Virus record (IMG/VR): IMGVR_UViG_3300043434_000734
Span: 149,707-213,706 of that record
DNA length: 64,000 nt
Source: a virus
Lineage: Duplodnaviria > Caudoviricetes
Strand: one strand, 5' to 3'
A program made the position numbers and the translations under genes. The number at the start of each line of letters is the position of its first letter. The first letter of the stretch is position 1. The notes under the pieces were generated by a model. It worked only from the letters and a program-made list of their open reading frames with translations. It was not told the origin of the DNA and did no database searches. Positions 2,346 through 18,201 of this stretch are shown piece after piece.

Positions 2346-3160
2346 TTTAAAAATATTGGCCGCCTATGGTCGATTAAAATAAACCACGAAAGTGGGATAA
2401 AGTGACGAGTCCTTGGTTGGGACAAGTTGCGGTTTCAGTAATGGAACTTGAGTAGGCAAGTGGAGTATCGTTGAACCTTAAGTACTGAGGGTAACACTTT
2501 AGGGAAAGTGGTTTGATGACTGAGCAATCCGAGTTGTTTGGTTGAGGTGGGAACACCAATAAGAATAATCCATAGAGTTATTGTGAGAAATATGGTTATC
2601 CGACTATATGATTACGTGATTCAATATGATGGGAATCTTAAAACCGAAAGGTATGGTGAAGTACGAGTGGTGTCGTTATCATCCTTTATTAAACTCTACC
2701 AAGGGTTTAGTTTTGAAGGGGTCCAAAAATATGGTAGCAGGGATGTTACAGAGAGTAGTTTAGTATCGAGTCGCTCAAAAGGTGGCTTGGCTAGGTGACG
2801 AACCACTACTTTCCAAATTCGGATAACTAAATTTTGTTAATTTTGGTTTAACAACTTAAAATCATACAAGAAAAAGTGTTCGTCAGTCGTTGTAGACAGG
2901 TGGCTACATAGTCGTGAGGGGTTCACGGCCACAAAGGGTCTCAAGCCCAATGTGATTTTTAAAAAAGTTCTCTAAACCCGCAAGGTTGAATCAGGGAGGC
3001 ATCTTTGATGAGTAATGAGTATTAAAAGAGTATATAACGACTCAAGGATTGGTTAATCTAATTGACCGCCGCTGATTGGTACTACTCAAAAGGTAGTGGA
3101 TATGGGAAGAATCAAATAATGTCCCTAAGTCAATCAAAAAATGGTGTAATCTCAGCCCTT
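2346..3160 (+). ncRNA. large structured ncRNA, GOLLD-like (ends approximate)
   Basis: ~800 nt without a credible ORF, G-richer than the flanks, many hairpins (ACCAC-GAAA-GTGG, ACC-GAAA-GGT, two CTCAAAAG-loop hairpins), own promoter, near tRNAs; size and context fit GOLLD, family not verified. Confidence 0.65.
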
Positions 3161-5729: not shown

Positions 5730-6130
5730 GGGGATGTCTGGTATTGATTTCAGGTATCAGGGATAAATGGCACGTAGTCAGAATTCATCTATGACTTAAA
5801 TCCACGGTGAAACATTTTAGACGGCAACGTTTACAACAATATGGAAATTGCAGGTTTACTTGCAACTTCTAAAGTAGCGGCCTAACCAAGTTAGCACTAC
5901 ACTCGGGTCGATGTACATATAACCTAGGAACAGAAGTACTTAAGGTGTGATACCACCTAAGAGTGTCAAAGGTCTCGTTCAGAGGGCTACCTTAAAGTGA
6001 ACTCGACACAGTTATAGGGAACGATGTTAAAATAGGAACCTTTTATTTGTCTGTTGTGAACTAACAGAATAAACGTGTAGTCATTTATTGTTGAACAGGA
6101 AAGACACGGGTTCGACTCCCGTCATCTCCA
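5730..6130 (+). ncRNA. ssrA: tmRNA
   Basis: 5' GGGGATG pairs with 3' CATCTCC-A with a G3.U pair, T-arm ACGGG-TTCGACT-CCCGT, tag ORF 5823-5885 GNVYNNMEIAGLLATSKVAA*. Confidence 0.93.
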
Positions 6131-6133
6131 CAT

Positions 6134-6166
6134 AAAAAAACCCACCTAAATGGTGGGTTTTTTATT
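6134..6166. terminator. bidirectional terminator
   Basis: AAAAAAACCCACC-TAAAT-GGTGGGTTTTTT. Confidence 0.85.
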
Positions 6167-7897
6167 TTCTATTAAACTCATTAGGTGTTCGGCTAATTCC
6201 ATATGTCCCACTCTTCCAGTGTGACCGTCCATAACTCCACCATTGGTTTCATCTTTAATTAAACTATATTTCTTATAAGGTATCATATTGTCAAAACATT
6301 TCTTCTTGTGATTGACGGAACCAAAATGTTTAATATTAAATTCGTTGTGTGCGAACCTTTGTCTCTCAGGTGTTCCGTATTCAATGTTGACAATTGCAAT
6401 TTTTTTACCATTATCCGCCAATTTTTTCATCTCAACTAAATCAACGTCGGTTTTTAAATCAACAACATAATCACAATTATTGTTAATCACTTCTTTTAAT
6501 TTATCATCGGTATCTCTCCAATTTGGTACCATTAAAGAATGTTTTAAATCAATACTTTCTTGTGACCATATGTTATTTGATACCACAATTTCAGGATCAA
6601 CCCAAGTCCAATGGTATATTTTATTTTTGGGTAATAAATTTTTAATCACATCCATAAATTGACTTATTTCTGTCCACCAAATTGAATGAGTGTCTCTATT
6701 AATCGACAATTGTTGGGTACTCGATAAATCTACATCGTCGTTTTGTTTTGGATGTGGTGTGTTTGGTAAGATATCAACAAAGGAATTTACATTATTCGCT
6801 AATTTAAATCTATTGATTGCTGTCCAACCAAATACCAAAATATCATTTGGTTTTATGGATTTGTAATTGTCCATAAATTTATCAAATATAGTGTAGTTAG
6901 AACATCCACCTATACCGTAGTTATGTAATTCAATGTCATATTTTTTAGAAATTATTTCACTGTAAGTTTCAGGTATGTCACCTAAAAAATCAAAATAGTT
7001 TTTTGCCCAAACCGTACCAGCATCAAAGTGCGATTTAAATGTTTTTGTATGTGAATCACCAAACGCAAATAATCTCGGTTTTAATCTATCCTCAATCATT
7101 TTAATTATTTTTTCACCATACATCTTATTACCAAAATAACCGGGATGTTTATCATCGGTAATACCGGGTACCTCATCTTTAATTGTTTGACCGTTGAATG
7201 TGCAGAACTGATTAACACAATTATATTCACCAAATTTTAAATTTTTTTTTGGGTCCAACAAAGAATAAAACTCATCGTATGGATTTTTCATACTCTCATC
7301 GTCAAACCAATAAAAGAATTCAATATTATTTTTTTCTAAAAAACTAAACAACCCAACAAGTTCACCTCTGTATCTATCAACATAGGCAACCGGATTGTGA
7401 TATTTTGATAAATATTCTTTAGTTTCGTCGGTAATTCTACCCTCAAAAAATTCACGTGAATACTTTATTTTATCTTTAGTGATAACTTCTTGTATCTGTA
7501 TTCCTGATAAATTACCAATATTTCTGTCATCGTCATATCTCACATTTGTAATTGCATAATCACCAATTTCATTATAATATTGGTCGACCCTATGTACTGG
7601 ACTTGTAATCTCCAATAAGAATAAAGTTTTTCTTGCTTTCTCAATACCAATCTCTTCAATATGTTCATACGTTCTTCTAACTAGTCTTGGTGCTCCCGAA
7701 CCCGAAAAAGCATCGTGTATTAATGAAACACCAAAATGGTTGGCGATGTATTTTGGATATGTGACATCTTTTTCATTATCCCATTCTATATTATATAATC
7801 TCTTATACTCATTTTTAATCATCCCTTGGTCTAAACCACCACCCGCAGTTAGTGAAGAACCATTAACATATATTCTTGTAAAGTTGTAATATTTCAT
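6146..7897 (-). CDS. tandem SGNH/GDSL-like domain protein
   Basis: VNGSSLT...KHPGYFGN and AFGDSHT...DGHTGRVGH; paralog of 30711-32204. Confidence 0.6.
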   Translation of the reverse strand: MKYYNFTRIYVNGSSLTAGGGLDQGMIKNEYKRLYNIEWDNEKDVTYPKYIANHFGVSLIHDAFSGSGAPRLVRRTYEHIEEIGIEKARKTLFLLEITSPVHRVDQYYNEIGDYAITNVRYDDDRNIGNLSGIQIQEVITKDKIKYSREFFEGRITDETKEYLSKYHNPVAYVDRYRGELVGLFSFLEKNNIEFFYWFDDESMKNPYDEFYSLLDPKKNLKFGEYNCVNQFCTFNGQTIKDEVPGITDDKHPGYFGNKMYGEKIIKMIEDRLKPRLFAFGDSHTKTFKSHFDAGTVWAKNYFDFLGDIPETYSEIISKKYDIELHNYGIGGCSNYTIFDKFMDNYKSIKPNDILVFGWTAINRFKLANNVNSFVDILPNTPHPKQNDDVDLSSTQQLSINRDTHSIWWTEISQFMDVIKNLLPKNKIYHWTWVDPEIVVSNNIWSQESIDLKHSLMVPNWRDTDDKLKEVINNNCDYVVDLKTDVDLVEMKKLADNGKKIAIVNIEYGTPERQRFAHNEFNIKHFGSVNHKKKCFDNMIPYKKYSLIKDETNGGVMDGHTGRVGHMELAEHLMSLIENKKPTI

Positions 7898-7941
7898 AAT
7901 AGAAATATAAATAAATAAAATTAAAAAGGGAATGTATTTAA

Positions 7942-8044
7942 ACGAACAAAGAGGTCTTTAGGACCCCCTTGTCGAGATTAAGAACACCTCCTTTTCGTTT
8001 ATATAAGTTATCGTTTAATGGCGACCAAACCAATTAAACTCTCT
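7942..8044 (-). ncRNA. candidate small RNA or 3' UTR element carrying an extended SD sequence
   Basis: TATTTATA motif upstream, 5' hairpin, AAAAGGAGGTGTTC with no start codon after it, terminator hairpin GGGGTC-CTAAA-GACCTC-TTTG. Confidence 0.55.
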
Positions 8045-8056
8045 TATAAATATCGT

Positions 8057-8665
8057 TTATTTTTTAATTAATCGTTCTTTTAATATATTTTTTACAGTTT
8101 CTTTTACTATAGATTCTTGTAATTTAACGTAACCTTGTTCTTTACCCAATTTTAAAACTTCATTGTAAATATCCTCAGTTATTTTAGTGTCATTCGGAGC
8201 CAAATACCTTATGTTTCTTAATTTACTTAATAATTCTGGTCCATAAATTTTACCATATTCGTCACCAAACAAAATAGTGTTCATTAAACCTATTTTGTTG
8301 TTTTTACAACCATAATCCCAATCATAGACTTTTTCATCACAATCTTTATAATTAAACGGTTTTGTTGGATTTTGTGCGGCTGGGTATCTTACTTTATAGT
8401 CAATAGTTGTTACAGATTTTTGTGGTTCGGTACTATTCGCTGATTGTTGAGTTGTTGACGATAATGTATCAGTTGTTAGATTCTTTTCATATGTTACATA
8501 ATCACCCAAATCGATTTTATTATGAAACATATTCCAAAATTTCTTTCTACCCTCCGGACTTTGCATATTTGTTTTGAAATAATCATATGTAAACTGTTTT
8601 CTTTGGTCAGAAAATTTTTCACCTAACTTATCCCATATTTTTTTTAATTCTAATTCGTTTACCAT
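8057..8665 (-). CDS. hypothetical protein
   Basis: 202-aa ORF. Confidence 0.75.
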   Translation of the reverse strand: MVNELELKKIWDKLGEKFSDQRKQFTYDYFKTNMQSPEGRKKFWNMFHNKIDLGDYVTYEKNLTTDTLSSTTQQSANSTEPQKSVTTIDYKVRYPAAQNPTKPFNYKDCDEKVYDWDYGCKNNKIGLMNTILFGDEYGKIYGPELLSKLRNIRYLAPNDTKITEDIYNEVLKLGKEQGYVKLQESIVKETVKNILKERLIKK

Positions 8666-10922: not shown

Positions 10923-11007
10923 AACTTATAAATATCCAATAAAAACTTTGAAAACGATACGGATATAATGAAAAATACCCTTTTTTCGGTAAAATATAAA
11001 GTTTAAA

Positions 11008-12502: not shown

Positions 12503-13588
12503 TTAGAGGTCTTTTTTTATGTAATCCAATGCTGAAGATATCACTTGATGCATATCATAATATTTATATTCTGCCAACCTTCCACCAAAATGAATATTTT
12601 CTAACTTATCAACTTCCGATTTGTATTTTAAATATATATTATTATTAGTCTTATCGTTAACTGGATAATAAGGTTCCGTTTCGTTTACTTTATAATCTGT
12701 CGGGTATTCAAATGTTATCCAAGTATTTTCGGTAATCACATCTTTTTCGAAATGTTTATGTTCTATTATACGAGTGTACTGAGTTTCTGAATCGGTATAA
12801 TTCATAACTGCACAACCTTGATAGTTATCCGTGTCCTTTTTAAAGTGTTCAAATCGAGTTGTCTTATATTCCAATTCACCATATTTGTAGTTAAAAAACT
12901 TATCAATCGGACCAGTATATATTACTTTACTGTGTTTAGGTAATTCATCTTTAAAGTAATCCACACCTAACTTCACATCAATACCATTCAATAATTTTTC
13001 AAATATTTGTGTATAACCACCAATTGGTATCCCTTGGTATTTGTCATTAAAATAGTTATTATCATATGTTAACCTAAAAGGTAAACGAGTAATAATTTCT
13101 TTCGGTAGTTCTTTGGGGTCTTTCTTCCATTGTTTAGAGGTATAATGTTTAATTAATTTCTCATACACATCTTTACCCACTAATTTAATTGCCTGTTCTT
13201 CTAAATTGGTTATTTCAGTAATTTCTGAACTTTGTTCCTCAATTATTTTTTTAGCTTCATTAGGGTGAGTAACTCCCCACAATTTATTGAACGTCCACAT
13301 ATTAAATGGTAAAGCATAAATTTCACCTTTGTAATTGGCGACAATCCTTAAACTAAAATTATTAAATGTAACAAATTGATTTATCCATTCCCAAACTTCA
13401 TCGTTTGATGTATGAAATATATGTGGACCGTATGTGTGTATATTAATACCGTCTTTATTTTCGGTATGACAATTGCCACCAATGTGATTTCTATTTTCAA
13501 TTACACAAACCTTATAACCTTTCTTGGTCAACTCGTGTGCACATATTGAACCGTAAAGTCCCGCACCAACAATTAAATAATCGTACAT
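12503..13588 (-). CDS. glf: UDP-galactopyranose mutase
   Basis: LIVGAGLYG FAD motif, HIGGNC, YGPHIFHT, FGGRLAEYKYYDMHQVI. Confidence 0.96.
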   Translation of the reverse strand: MYDYLIVGAGLYGSICAHELTKKGYKVCVIENRNHIGGNCHTENKDGINIHTYGPHIFHTSNDEVWEWINQFVTFNNFSLRIVANYKGEIYALPFNMWTFNKLWGVTHPNEAKKIIEEQSSEITEITNLEEQAIKLVGKDVYEKLIKHYTSKQWKKDPKELPKEIITRLPFRLTYDNNYFNDKYQGIPIGGYTQIFEKLLNGIDVKLGVDYFKDELPKHSKVIYTGPIDKFFNYKYGELEYKTTRFEHFKKDTDNYQGCAVMNYTDSETQYTRIIEHKHFEKDVITENTWITFEYPTDYKVNETEPYYPVNDKTNNNIYLKYKSEVDKLENIHFGGRLAEYKYYDMHQVISSALDYIKKDL

Positions 13589-15766: not shown

Positions 15767-16948
15767 CTATAATTTACTTATTAAATCAACCCACATTTGG
15801 CCAATTTTATTAACATTAAAATTAGATATGATGTGATTCTTACCTCTATTTCTAATATCCTCTTTTATTTGTGGATTTGATTCCAAGAATTTTATCTTTT
15901 CAACTATATTGTCGGTTATAGTGAATTTCCCTTCTAAATCTTTTGTTAAAGGTTCATTTTGCATTTTTTCCACATCAACCCCTTCAGGGAAATCTAACCA
16001 CACACAATAGTTTTCAAAATTTTCAGGTAACGCACCTAACGGATAAGTTACAACAATTGCACCTAAAGCTATGGCTTCCGCAACAACACAAGAGAATGTG
16101 TCTTTATGTACATCTTGATATGGCGTATATAACGGGTAAATAAAATATTCACTTTCGGCGATATTTGTAAAAAGTGTCTTCTTATCTACACCATTGTGTA
16201 AATTAAAAAAACTATCTTGGTGATGATGAGTTGCCATTAAATAATCAAAAGCGTGAAACTCACTATCCTCAAAATTTAACTTCCTAACTGCTTCTATTGA
16301 AACATTACCACCTCTAGCCCAAGCTGCGTGAAAAACAAATTTGTGTGGTTTTCTTTTTGGTTTAGAATATAAAACTTCTTGAATCATTTCATCCATAACA
16401 GGATTAGGAATTAAAGAAATTTGTACATTTTTAATTGATGTTTCATTATTTTTTATTGAACTTGTTAAAGGACCGGTCATATTTTTTTCCCATTCGGAAA
16501 TATGCACAAACCCTAACGATAAATTGTTTTGTTTTACGTAATCCTTAATATGGTCAATGCCGTATATCCATTGCATATGTGACCAATATATTAAACCTTT
16601 AGTAACTTTGATTGGTAATTTATCATAATCCTGAAACCATAACATACTAATGAGGATATCAAACTCTTTATTTTCAATTCCGTCAAAGTTAATATTTGTG
16701 TACTTAACACCATAAAATTCTTCTCCGGGTGTGTAAACTCTACCCTTTTCTTTATATTCAATTTCAAGTTTTTCTTCCAATTTATCGGCAACAAATACAA
16801 CATCGTGCCCTTGCTTGGATAAGTATTCAGCGACTAATACTGAACTAGTGTCAGTCCCTGAACCGCCCCCATTTCCATATCTTAAATTGTACCCATTCAG
16901 GTAATTACTTCTTCTACTGTTACCAATTACTATTAATGCTATTCTCAT
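15767..16948 (-). CDS. GT-B (GT4-like) glycosyltransferase
   Basis: DTFSCVVAEAIALGAIVVTYPLGALPE. Confidence 0.8.
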   Translation of the reverse strand: MRIALIVIGNSRRSNYLNGYNLRYGNGGGSGTDTSSVLVAEYLSKQGHDVVFVADKLEEKLEIEYKEKGRVYTPGEEFYGVKYTNINFDGIENKEFDILISMLWFQDYDKLPIKVTKGLIYWSHMQWIYGIDHIKDYVKQNNLSLGFVHISEWEKNMTGPLTSSIKNNETSIKNVQISLIPNPVMDEMIQEVLYSKPKRKPHKFVFHAAWARGGNVSIEAVRKLNFEDSEFHAFDYLMATHHHQDSFFNLHNGVDKKTLFTNIAESEYFIYPLYTPYQDVHKDTFSCVVAEAIALGAIVVTYPLGALPENFENYCVWLDFPEGVDVEKMQNEPLTKDLEGKFTITDNIVEKIKFLESNPQIKEDIRNRGKNHIISNFNVNKIGQMWVDLISKL

Positions 16949-18201
16949 TAGATTGTTTTTTCGTATCTGTCACTCCATTGTTTATCCTCATCAAATAAAT
17001 ACATCACAATTTTATTCGGTTTTTCGATTGTTTCTAAAGTTAAAGTGGTTTTATTCATTTCTAAGTTAACATATTGTGGTTCCGATTCAATTGTAAAATC
17101 TTTACGATACAATTCAAGACCTGATAACGTATGAACAGCAAAAGTCATAAACTTAGGTTTTTTAAAGTCAAATCGTTTAAAAAATTCAACATCCCATTCT
17201 AATGATAATTCATATTTATTTTTAATAAATTGGTTTTCCCAATCCGAAGGGTTAGGTGGTTCGTTAACCTTTAATGTATAATCTTGGATTACACATTTTT
17301 TAAAATCAAAACCTCCATAAACTTCATAATCGTGTAATGTCCTAACCGTACCTAAACCATATTCACCCATATCAATTCCATATTCTTGGGTTCCGAATAG
17401 TTGTCTAGTTTTATTACGTGCAAAAACGTCACGTTCCCCACTCGTTTTTTTAGTTTCACTATTCACCCCGTGATCATCCCAATGTTTTACACGATAATTT
17501 CTAGTGTATTCGTGCCACATAATCATACGGTATGGACTATAAAAATCATAACCATTAGTGAATGCTCTAACACTTAATGTCGTTTCTTCGGTATACCCAC
17601 CAAAATAAATGTCAGGGTCGTACGGTACTTCTTTAATGAATTCACCTGAAGTAAAATAGAAGTGACCACTAATTGTTCTTGCCTTTATTACCCTATTTCT
17701 CGACTTGTAATCTTGTATATACCAAGGCATACTCATCAATAATCTATCACCACTAAATTCATATTGTGACATTAAACAAGGTGTAGGTATCCAAGTACTT
17801 TCTTCTGATTTGGGGTCAAATGGTGTACAATATGTTGAAATAACCGGTTTTTCCGATGTCCCCAATGCTTGGTTATAATCTTCTAAAACCATAACATCCC
17901 AATCTTGGACAAATCTATGGTGAGAGTCAATTTGTAACGTATACTCCTCATCATCGTACAATGTATTAGTGATATGACGTGCCCAACCAAGACCCTCACT
18001 TTCACTATAATGATGTTTACTTACCCTAAATTGTGGATTACCATCAAACATATCAATTGGTTCACTACTATCGTATTGCCAACAAATACCAAACACTAAA
18101 TTTTTAGGGTTTTTAGCTTTTTTTATCATATCCTCGATTGTGGGAACCAATTCAGGATCACGATATGAGGCTATTTGTACGAAAATTTTTTCTTTCTTCA
18201 T
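16948..18201 (-). CDS. GT60-like GlcNAc transferase (Skp1 Gnt1-like)
   Basis: IFVQIASYRDPEL, GLGWARH, YTLQIDSHHRF. Confidence 0.85.
   Translation of the reverse strand: MKKEKIFVQIASYRDPELVPTIEDMIKKAKNPKNLVFGICWQYDSSEPIDMFDGNPQFRVSKHHYSESEGLGWARHITNTLYDDEEYTLQIDSHHRFVQDWDVMVLEDYNQALGTSEKPVISTYCTPFDPKSEESTWIPTPCLMSQYEFSGDRLLMSMPWYIQDYKSRNRVIKARTISGHFYFTSGEFIKEVPYDPDIYFGGYTEETTLSVRAFTNGYDFYSPYRMIMWHEYTRNYRVKHWDDHGVNSETKKTSGERDVFARNKTRQLFGTQEYGIDMGEYGLGTVRTLHDYEVYGGFDFKKCVIQDYTLKVNEPPNPSDWENQFIKNKYELSLEWDVEFFKRFDFKKPKFMTFAVHTLSGLELYRKDFTIESEPQYVNLEMNKTTLTLETIEKPNKIVMYLFDEDKQWSDRYEKTI

Follow-up and report, generated by a model that had tools for sequence, protein, structure and literature searches.

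In Bacteroidia, the 3' tail of 16S rRNA is normally buried under the ribosomal proteins bS21, bS18, and bS6 (PMC13000457, PMC9976891). In Flavobacterium johnsoniae, only an extended Shine-Dalgarno (SD) sequence can engage the buried anti-SD (ASD) (PMC13000457, PMC9976891), and extended SDs are favoured by bS21-free ribosomes (PMC9976891). The mRNA of rpsU, the gene for bS21, is the only one known to use such a helix; the SD-ASD helix on rpsU is 13 bp long and excludes bound bS21, and 65% of the wild-type initiation complexes on rpsU mRNA have the helix formed and bS21 absent (PMC13000457). Bacteroidia keep a perfect ASD yet hide it, and the host rpsU mRNA is its sole natural ligand known so far.

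Phages of freshwater Bacteroidetes with genomes of 293-331 kb and 31-34% G+C also encode bS21, and their bS21 gene is expressed late, together with the structural genes (Chen et al., PMC9723584). Phage-encoded bS21 was also reported by Mizuno et al. 2019, as cited in PMC9976891. According to a speculation by McNutt et al., products of bS21 phages may assist in the exchange of bS21, and the autoregulation of rpsU would be a counter-measure of the host. It is puzzling that bS21 is carried by many aquatic phages.

Non-coding RNAs can occupy a reader by imitating its recognition site. CsrB and RsmZ mimic SD-like GGA sites and sequester CsrA, and 6S RNA mimics an open promoter. The locus described here is read as the single-copy gene of a predicted ~106-nt non-coding RNA carried by ~330-kb, bS21-encoding jumbo phages of freshwater Bacteroidota (Flavobacterium and relatives). 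With a probability of roughly one half, this RNA would be an orphan mimic of an rpsU-like initiation site that pairs with the ASD tail and serves as a decoy for bS21-free ribosomes, in the eviction of bS21, or in both. A non-coding RNA resembling the rpsU site would link the hidden ASD and the phage-encoded bS21 in a testable way.

The Locus and the Parts of the Unit

The element lies in a gap of 159 nt between two minus-strand ORFs (8057-8665 and 6146-7897) of the window, by which the whole 64-kb stretch of DNA analysed is meant. The plus strand at 7982-7994 reads GAACACCTCCTTT. This 13-mer, pointed out by the first-pass annotation, is exact and occurs once in the window, where the next-best sites have two mismatches. 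The minus-strand order given in that annotation was reproduced as well: a motif (8052-8045), a hairpin (8039-8013), a purine tract (7995-7982), and a terminator hairpin (7974-7940). Its proposal of a candidate small RNA agrees with what is found, a conserved, self-contained, non-coding unit of the minus strand with a promoter-like motif, a hairpin, and a terminator.

All parts are on the minus strand. The promoter-like, start-associated motif ATATTTAT (8046..8053) is directly upstream of the RNA; extended by one A it spans 8053-8045, and it had been read as TATTTATA over 8052-8045. The predicted RNA body of ~106 nt (7940..8045), with an inferred 5' end, is ORF-free. It contains the 5' hairpin P2 (8013..8039), composed of 9 bp and one bulged U, and the alignment of copies shows after it a conserved GAUAA and a variable linker (8001..8012). 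The extended SD-like tract (7982..8000) consists of AAACGA and AAAAGGAGGUGUUC and contains the complement of the 16S tail at 7982-7994; the purines at 7995-7982 read AAAAGGAGGTGTTC. An invariant AUCUC (7974..7978), 6-9 nt after GGAGG, is an internal partial ASD and not a start codon; with the next nucleotide it reads AUCUCG (7978-7973), 3' of the SD-like tract. The intrinsic terminator (7940..7974) is a G+C-rich hairpin (stem 7974-7943), and both its 3' arm and its tail are rich in U. Overall, the RNA looks like an initiation region without its message, in which a 5' hairpin, an A-rich linker, and an extended SD tract are followed directly by a terminator.

Both neighbouring ORFs are outside the element and on the minus strand. 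The upstream ORF (8057..8665; 202 aa) has no assigned function and is not the neighbour of the element in most other loci, and the downstream ORF (6146..7897; 583 aa) has GDSL-like matches in some of its homologues. Searches of Pfam and PHROGs gave nothing informative for the neighbour genes or for the motif-bearing genes. The window has a phage-like character, and an RNA-gene island is present near the element (97-951, 2751-3158, and 5730-6133 of the window). Besides five tRNAs (Val, two Gly, Gln, and Ser), the first 6.2 kb contain a GOLLD RNA of full length (314 bits) and a phage tmRNA, whose tag peptide is GNVYNNMEIAGLLATSKVAA. Sugar-metabolism genes are found at 12503-13588 and 16948-18201 (both minus strand), namely a UDP-galactopyranose mutase homologue with ~58% identity to annotated glf of Streptococcus phage records and a glycosyltransferase (phrog_24687).

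Conservation, Distribution, and Carriers

Related loci were initially found via homologues of the 583-aa neighbour ORF, with 89-59% protein identity, and in these loci conservation is much higher in the intergenic element than in the flanking genes. Pattern scans with the loop and the SD revealed 51 contigs in IMG/VR and at least 120 contigs in metagenomes. Further copies were obtained with a 5' anchor without any SD and with an SD anchor without the loop. The matches listed include 139 distinct copies of the element, from freshwater phage and metagenome contigs, and the conservation in related phages on which the candidate RNA depended was thereby found. Because the tract is conserved in these 139 distinct homologous copies, it is more than a chance occurrence. 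The flanks are completely different between loci, while the unit itself is conserved.

A covariance model built from 24 diverse copies recognizes the window at 7932-8053 (minus strand) with 134.9 bits (E 7.5e-29). It finds exactly one copy in each of five IMG/VR records of ~230-335 kb, and one in the window. No family of Rfam 15 matches at the gathering threshold or at E<=10, and the best sub-threshold match is Yfr11, with 21.7 bits against a threshold of 44. There was no match in GenBank phages by megablast of 4 kb or by blastn of the element, and no description of the element was found in the papers searched. It appears to represent a real, undescribed, and widespread small-RNA family of lake jumbo phages.

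Among 185,579 bacterial and archaeal species, represented by one genome each, the sole true match is a contig binned in a Flavobacterium MAG (locus L005). This contig is probably phage DNA, because it shares with the phage loci both a 583-aa ORF homologue and the neighbouring genes. Several other matches were set aside. L001 has a 47% homologue of the 583-aa gene and lacks the element, and its synteny differs; L002, L181, and L183 are unrelated chance matches. The prophage matches to CTGCTTAAAAG... and several true SD+ATG sites among the pattern matches are also unrelated to the element.

The bS21 protein (PF01165, 36-44 bits) is encoded in six of seven related IMG/VR records searched for rpsU, as the first-pass annotation had suggested, and the exception is only 39% complete. 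The completeness estimates of the carrier records imply genomes of ~330 kb. In all five records searched with the covariance model (G001-G005, which are the IMG/VR records behind L032, L028, L056, L040, and L189), a distance of 36-38 kb separates the RNA gene from bS21, the two being on opposite strands, and this constant spacing means that this part of the genome is strongly syntenic. No bS21 gene was found inside the 64-kb window, which the spacing of ~37 kb in the related records would explain. The carriers match the bS21 phages described in PMC9723584. They seem to be one phage lineage, and so the co-occurrence of the RNA with bS21 is not independent evidence.

Structure and Strand

P2 shows compensatory double changes at six of its nine pairs, 95% of the cells are paired, and its covariation score was reached by 0 of 500 shuffles. 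The 8-nt loop UUUGGUCG (8022-8029, minus strand) keeps the core UGGUC even in copies from the SD-anchored pattern. The terminator hairpin is kept in all 138 copies with a median energy of -15.9 kcal/mol, and 93.5% of the cells in its lower stem are paired. From copy to copy, the entire apical stem and loop are exchanged with the pairing kept, as in GGGGGUCC/UAAA, GGGUC/UUCG, and GAGGC/GCAA.

G-U pairs are frequent in both helices (9/24, 6/24, and 9/24 at three pairs). The RNA strand is the minus strand of the window because these pairs would be A-C on the other strand. For the same reason, the suggestion of the first-pass annotation that a plus-strand transcript could mimic the 16S tail is disfavoured. 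With a z-score of -3.7, versus -1.7 on the plus strand, the fold of the minus strand is the significant one.

In RNAfold predictions, the terminated RNA may adopt a three-way arrangement. AAACGA is predicted to pair with a 3' UCGUUU, and in all members inspected GAGGU is predicted to form a weak stem of 5 bp with the invariant AUCUC. This would leave the SD core about half accessible (mean unpaired probability 0.46). The tract had been described earlier as unpaired; its conservation holds, while its single-strandedness would be reduced by this stem. Both sides of the AAACGA/UCGUUU and GAGGU/AUCUC pairings are invariant, hence they show no covariation. An outer helix P1 between the linker and the 5' end is weakly supported, native linkers being ~1.1 kcal/mol better than swapped ones. 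A pairing of the SD with CAUUCCCUUUUU was rejected, since it reaches past the terminator and L005, L006, and L009 do not retain it.

The RNA starts with AGAGUUU(GAU), like 16S nt 8-17, in L054, L019, and similar copies, and in the window at 8043-8034. When the 5' end AGAGUUUGAU was considered as a copy of the 16S 5' end, its alignment to Flavobacterium 16S was no better than that of shuffles, and the same was true of pairing between the P2 loop and 16S. The anti-SD model leaves the invariant P2 loop and GAUAA unaccounted for, and both suggest a second partner.

Complementarity to the 16S rRNA Tail

The window at 7982-7994 (plus strand) is identical to the Flavobacterium 16S 3' tail GAACACCUCCUUU, and the minus-strand RNA is a perfect 13-nt complement of 16S nt 1530-1542 (13/13 versus Flavobacterium). 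This genus was sampled since it is that of the MAG reached via the homologous locus, and all four complete 16S genes (4/4) end with ...GGCTGGAACACCTCCTTTct. The Bacteroidota 16S tail that the first-pass annotation gave is borne out by these four genes, and its statements from the literature on the sequestered ASD, rpsU, and phage bS21 are correct as well (PMC7797042, PMC9976891, PMC13000457, PMC9723584). Across the RNA family, variants differ in the length of their complementarity to the 16S tail, which is 9-13 bp. The tract AAAGGAGGURUUY would pair with nt 1530-1542 of the 16S 3' tail, and the chance that the RNA does so is put at about even.

The variation was analysed position by position in copies aligned on GGRGG (n=138). 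The four core Gs, which face C1535, C1536, C1538, and C1539, are G in 138/138 copies, and the middle core A, facing U1537, is A in 135 and G in three. The first position after the core faces A1534 and is U in 137/138. Position +7, facing A1532, is always U (138/138), and +8, facing A1531, is U in 133/138; +9 faces G1530 and is C in 95 and U in 41. With few exceptions, the substitutions in the purine tract thus leave Watson-Crick or wobble pairs with the 16S tail intact. All search patterns but the SD-anchored one left the positions after GGAGGU free, and these positions sit in a predicted loop.

The split position, +6, faces 16S nt 1533 and is G in 61 copies and A in 77. A scan of 401 Bacteroidota genomes clarified that nt 1533 is itself polymorphic: C in 33 of 60 genomes (ends ...GGAACACC) versus U in 27 (ends ...GGAATACC). 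The U1533 form is present within Flavobacteriales, too. In over half of the copies, an A faces nt 1533, a mismatch to the Flavobacterium-type C1533. In the tract variants with three As instead of four, CG is aligned with U1544 and C1543, exactly the register of rpsU. Beyond the RNA gene itself, no perfect ASD-like 12-mer is present in the five phage genomes; the seed has no phage-internal target, and its partner must be a host RNA. Position by position, the single-stranded tract with the highest conservation is a putative ligand for the Bacteroidota ASD tail.

Comparison with Known Systems

The SD-like tract resembles the host rpsU initiation region AACGAGAGGAGGUGU, whose extended SD in Flavobacterium has been described (PMC9976891, PMC13000457). 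In five Flavobacterium genomes, the host rpsU reads ..TTAACGAGAGGAGGTGTCTATATTATG, with one GGGGG variant, and the phage tract AAACGAAAAGGAGGTGTTC has the AACGA prefix, the purine run, and GGAGGUGU in common with these leaders. A GGGGG variant is observed in both. As in the Flavobacteriales rpsU region (PMC9976891, PMC13000457, PMC13000453), an uninterrupted complement of 9-13 nt to the 16S tail stands among genes without SD. Among the 73 ORFs of the window, a mere 4-mer SD core at -20..-4 is present in only 1, versus a background of 7%, consistent with the first-pass annotation. A start codon ~7-10 nt downstream, which belongs to an rpsU-type initiation region, is absent. Unlike the rpsU region, the phage RNA contains no start codon, ORF, or bS21, and a terminator directly follows. 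Its helix register is shifted by 2 nt toward the 16S body (nt 1530-1542 for the phage RNA versus 1532-1544 for rpsU). Unlike rpsU, it is encoded by the phage and has an extra structured 5' hairpin.

The phage bS21 genes (PMC9723584) are found in the same genomes and share the upstream ATATTTAT motif with the RNA gene; the one product is a protein and the other an RNA. Both point at the host bS21/ASD pocket, which would link them functionally. The similarity to CsrB/RsmZ and 6S RNA is in the proposed principle, a non-coding RNA imitating a recognition site to occupy its reader. Unlike them, the phage RNA has a single site and is phage-encoded, and its proposed target is an rRNA tail instead of a protein. 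Like the cis leaders that sequester an SD (riboswitch platforms and RNA thermometers), the RNA has its SD partly paired downstream (GAGGU/AUCUC). Unlike these leaders, it has no regulated ORF; it has its own terminator and variable neighbours, often a convergent tRNA. Similar to GOLLD (RF02032), of which a copy is 5 kb away in the window, it is a conserved structured non-coding RNA of lake phages with no assigned function. It is unrelated to GOLLD in sequence and structure and much smaller, and a specific target can be proposed for it.

Coding Capacity and Genomic Context

No ATG, GTG, or TTG is found at SD spacing after the tract, as had been noted before, and the sole GTG overlaps GGAGG. The loop-to-SD distance modulo 3 is spread over all frames (64, 46, and 28 copies), and a hidden micro-ORF, which had been raised as another explanation of the SD, is not supported by any conserved frame. 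Among the longest sense ORFs, each of the three frames is used across the purine tract, and close relatives differ by 2-nt indels after the SD. A 31-aa ORF starting with TTG (7938-8033) is broken by indels and by the spread of frames. A micro-ORF from AUC was also rejected, because its peptide is not conserved and the sequence and length after AUC vary between copies. Thus, the frame conserved across homologues that would be expected of a small protein or leader peptide is lacking.

A convergent tRNA or tmRNA is within 400 nt downstream in 27/73 distinct contexts, often past a second terminator, which argues that the element is not a leader. A gene is within 150 nt downstream in the window and in 21/73 contexts. 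The downstream genes vary between loci, and the element has no fixed position upstream of a same-strand gene. As in a stand-alone sRNA gene, the unit is conserved, the flanks are variable, the structure covaries, and a promoter-like element and a terminator of its own are present.

Alternative Explanations

A 5' hairpin, a single-stranded seed, and a terminator constitute the architecture of many trans-acting sRNAs. The RNA could be an ordinary base-pairing sRNA whose purine-rich seed AAAGGAGGU acts on a CU-rich site of a host mRNA or another RNA, the 16S match being incidental. The target is not phage-encoded, and a host target is needed under either model. This reading is rather unlikely, because 13-14 nt are conserved in the exact register of the 16S tail, including the RUUY beyond the core, the split position mirrors the 16S polymorphism, and no candidate mRNA target was identified. 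Furthermore, no other RNA with the tail's sequence comes near it in abundance in a host cell. A protein-binding RNA would account for what the ASD pairing leaves unexplained, the invariant unpaired blocks UUUGGUCG, GAUAA, AAACGA, and AUCUC, as well as for a P2 loop without a special complement in 16S. The P2 loop, GAUAA, and the GGA tract would be read by a phage or host protein, and the RNA would act without rRNA pairing, as a decoy in the way CsrB sequesters CsrA, or as an RNP scaffold. The pattern of substitutions (A/G opposite U, C/U opposite G, and none opposite C or A) fits base pairing instead. There is only one GGA motif, versus the multiple sites of the CsrB type, and no candidate protein, so that such a role is clearly unlikely.

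A translated or cis-acting element is very improbable. It would be either a micro-ORF starting from the invariant AUC or a leader or attenuator of downstream read-through. AUCUCG is invariant and at ideal SD spacing, inspection shows the 3' arm of the terminator as a possible alternative partner of the SD tract, and the nearby genes mentioned above would be candidates for control. AUC is not a normal start codon, however, and the frame after AUC UCG RCA varies in length and sequence through terminator stem swaps and indels. No frame is conserved, and what follows the element differs between loci, with a convergent tRNA or tmRNA next in over a third of the contexts. Hardly credible is a signal at the DNA level (an origin, a packaging site, or a protein-binding site) or a plus-strand RNA copying the 16S tail. 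The single copy per genome would suit such a signal, and the plus strand literally contains the 16S tail sequence. Against it, the frequent G-U pairs would turn into A-C in an RNA of the opposite strand and have no relevance in DNA, the orientation of both the U-tract and the promoter-like motif fits the minus strand, and the plus-strand fold is weak.

Proposed Function

Under the preferred reading, an orphan mimic of the rpsU initiation site, it may be inferred that the RNA is transcribed, binds ribosomes, and has a consequence for bS21. It would occupy ribosomes that lack bS21 and out-compete the host rpsU mRNA, and the replenishment of host bS21 would be blocked. It might also prise the 16S tail from its pocket and displace host bS21. 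Either effect would favour the take-over of ribosomes by the phage's own bS21, whose gene has no SD. An abundant, untranslatable imitation of the rpsU site would fit the gap in the proposal of McNutt et al. As a decoy, the RNA must be abundant relative to its target.

A full bS21 exchange is a more tentative extension, which is possible and rather doubtful. In this scenario, the 13-bp helix would free the ASD, oust host bS21, and silence its SD-dependent resynthesis, and phage bS21 would re-equip the ribosomes, possibly in the service of late, SD-less, and perhaps leaderless phage messages. In five Flavobacteriales genomes with U1533 (L235-L239; 16S ...GGAATACCUCC), rpsU has no strong SD. For this reason, the version in which the RNA competes with rpsU cannot hold for all hosts, and the autoregulation of bS21 may differ within Flavobacteriales.

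If the proposal is true, the RNA would be a new class of viral take-over factor, reprogramming the composition or specificity of the ribosome. It may let the phage tamper with the choice of messages by the host ribosome, and it would offer a natural template for orthogonal control of translation. Suitable reagents exist for F. johnsoniae, such as bS21-depleted ribosomes, ASD-ablated ribosomes, and rpsU'-gfp reporters. Should the mechanism prove wrong, the element would still represent a well-defined and widespread RNA family of lake jumbo phages that had not been described before.

Promoter-Like Motif and Expression

A ATATTTAT-like motif is found <=30 nt upstream of the ATG of 19/73 ORFs in the window, while the background is 1.1%. 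It is often only 4-5 nt from the ATG, as for the motifs starting at 10936, 9912, 39263, 24944, and 41271. The phage bS21 gene, which has no SD, carries the motif 5 nt upstream of its ATG in L218 (about 1465-1485) and in L219. The motif was forced by the pattern in one of the three scans for the RNA and is invariant in the copies from the other patterns, too. These observations, together with the late expression of phage bS21, support, and do not prove, a role of ATATTTAT as a promoter and a late timing of the RNA. As a promoter, it would predict a 5' end of the RNA near AGAG. The spacing of the motif and the absence of SDs suggest that late phage mRNAs are leaderless or nearly so.

No RNA library is listed for the 3-kb stretch around the element. 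Parts of relatives are present in a few RNA-library contigs, which are assembled and carry no ends, strand, or level, and one of them continues into the upstream DNA. In L018, L130, L141, and L156, an ASD-like AACACCTCCGTTC is located ~20 nt upstream of the ATATTTAT motif. The homologous positions in other loci differ, such as CATCTACATTC, and AACACCTCCGTTC upstream of the RNA gene is probably due to chance or represents the end of a gene.
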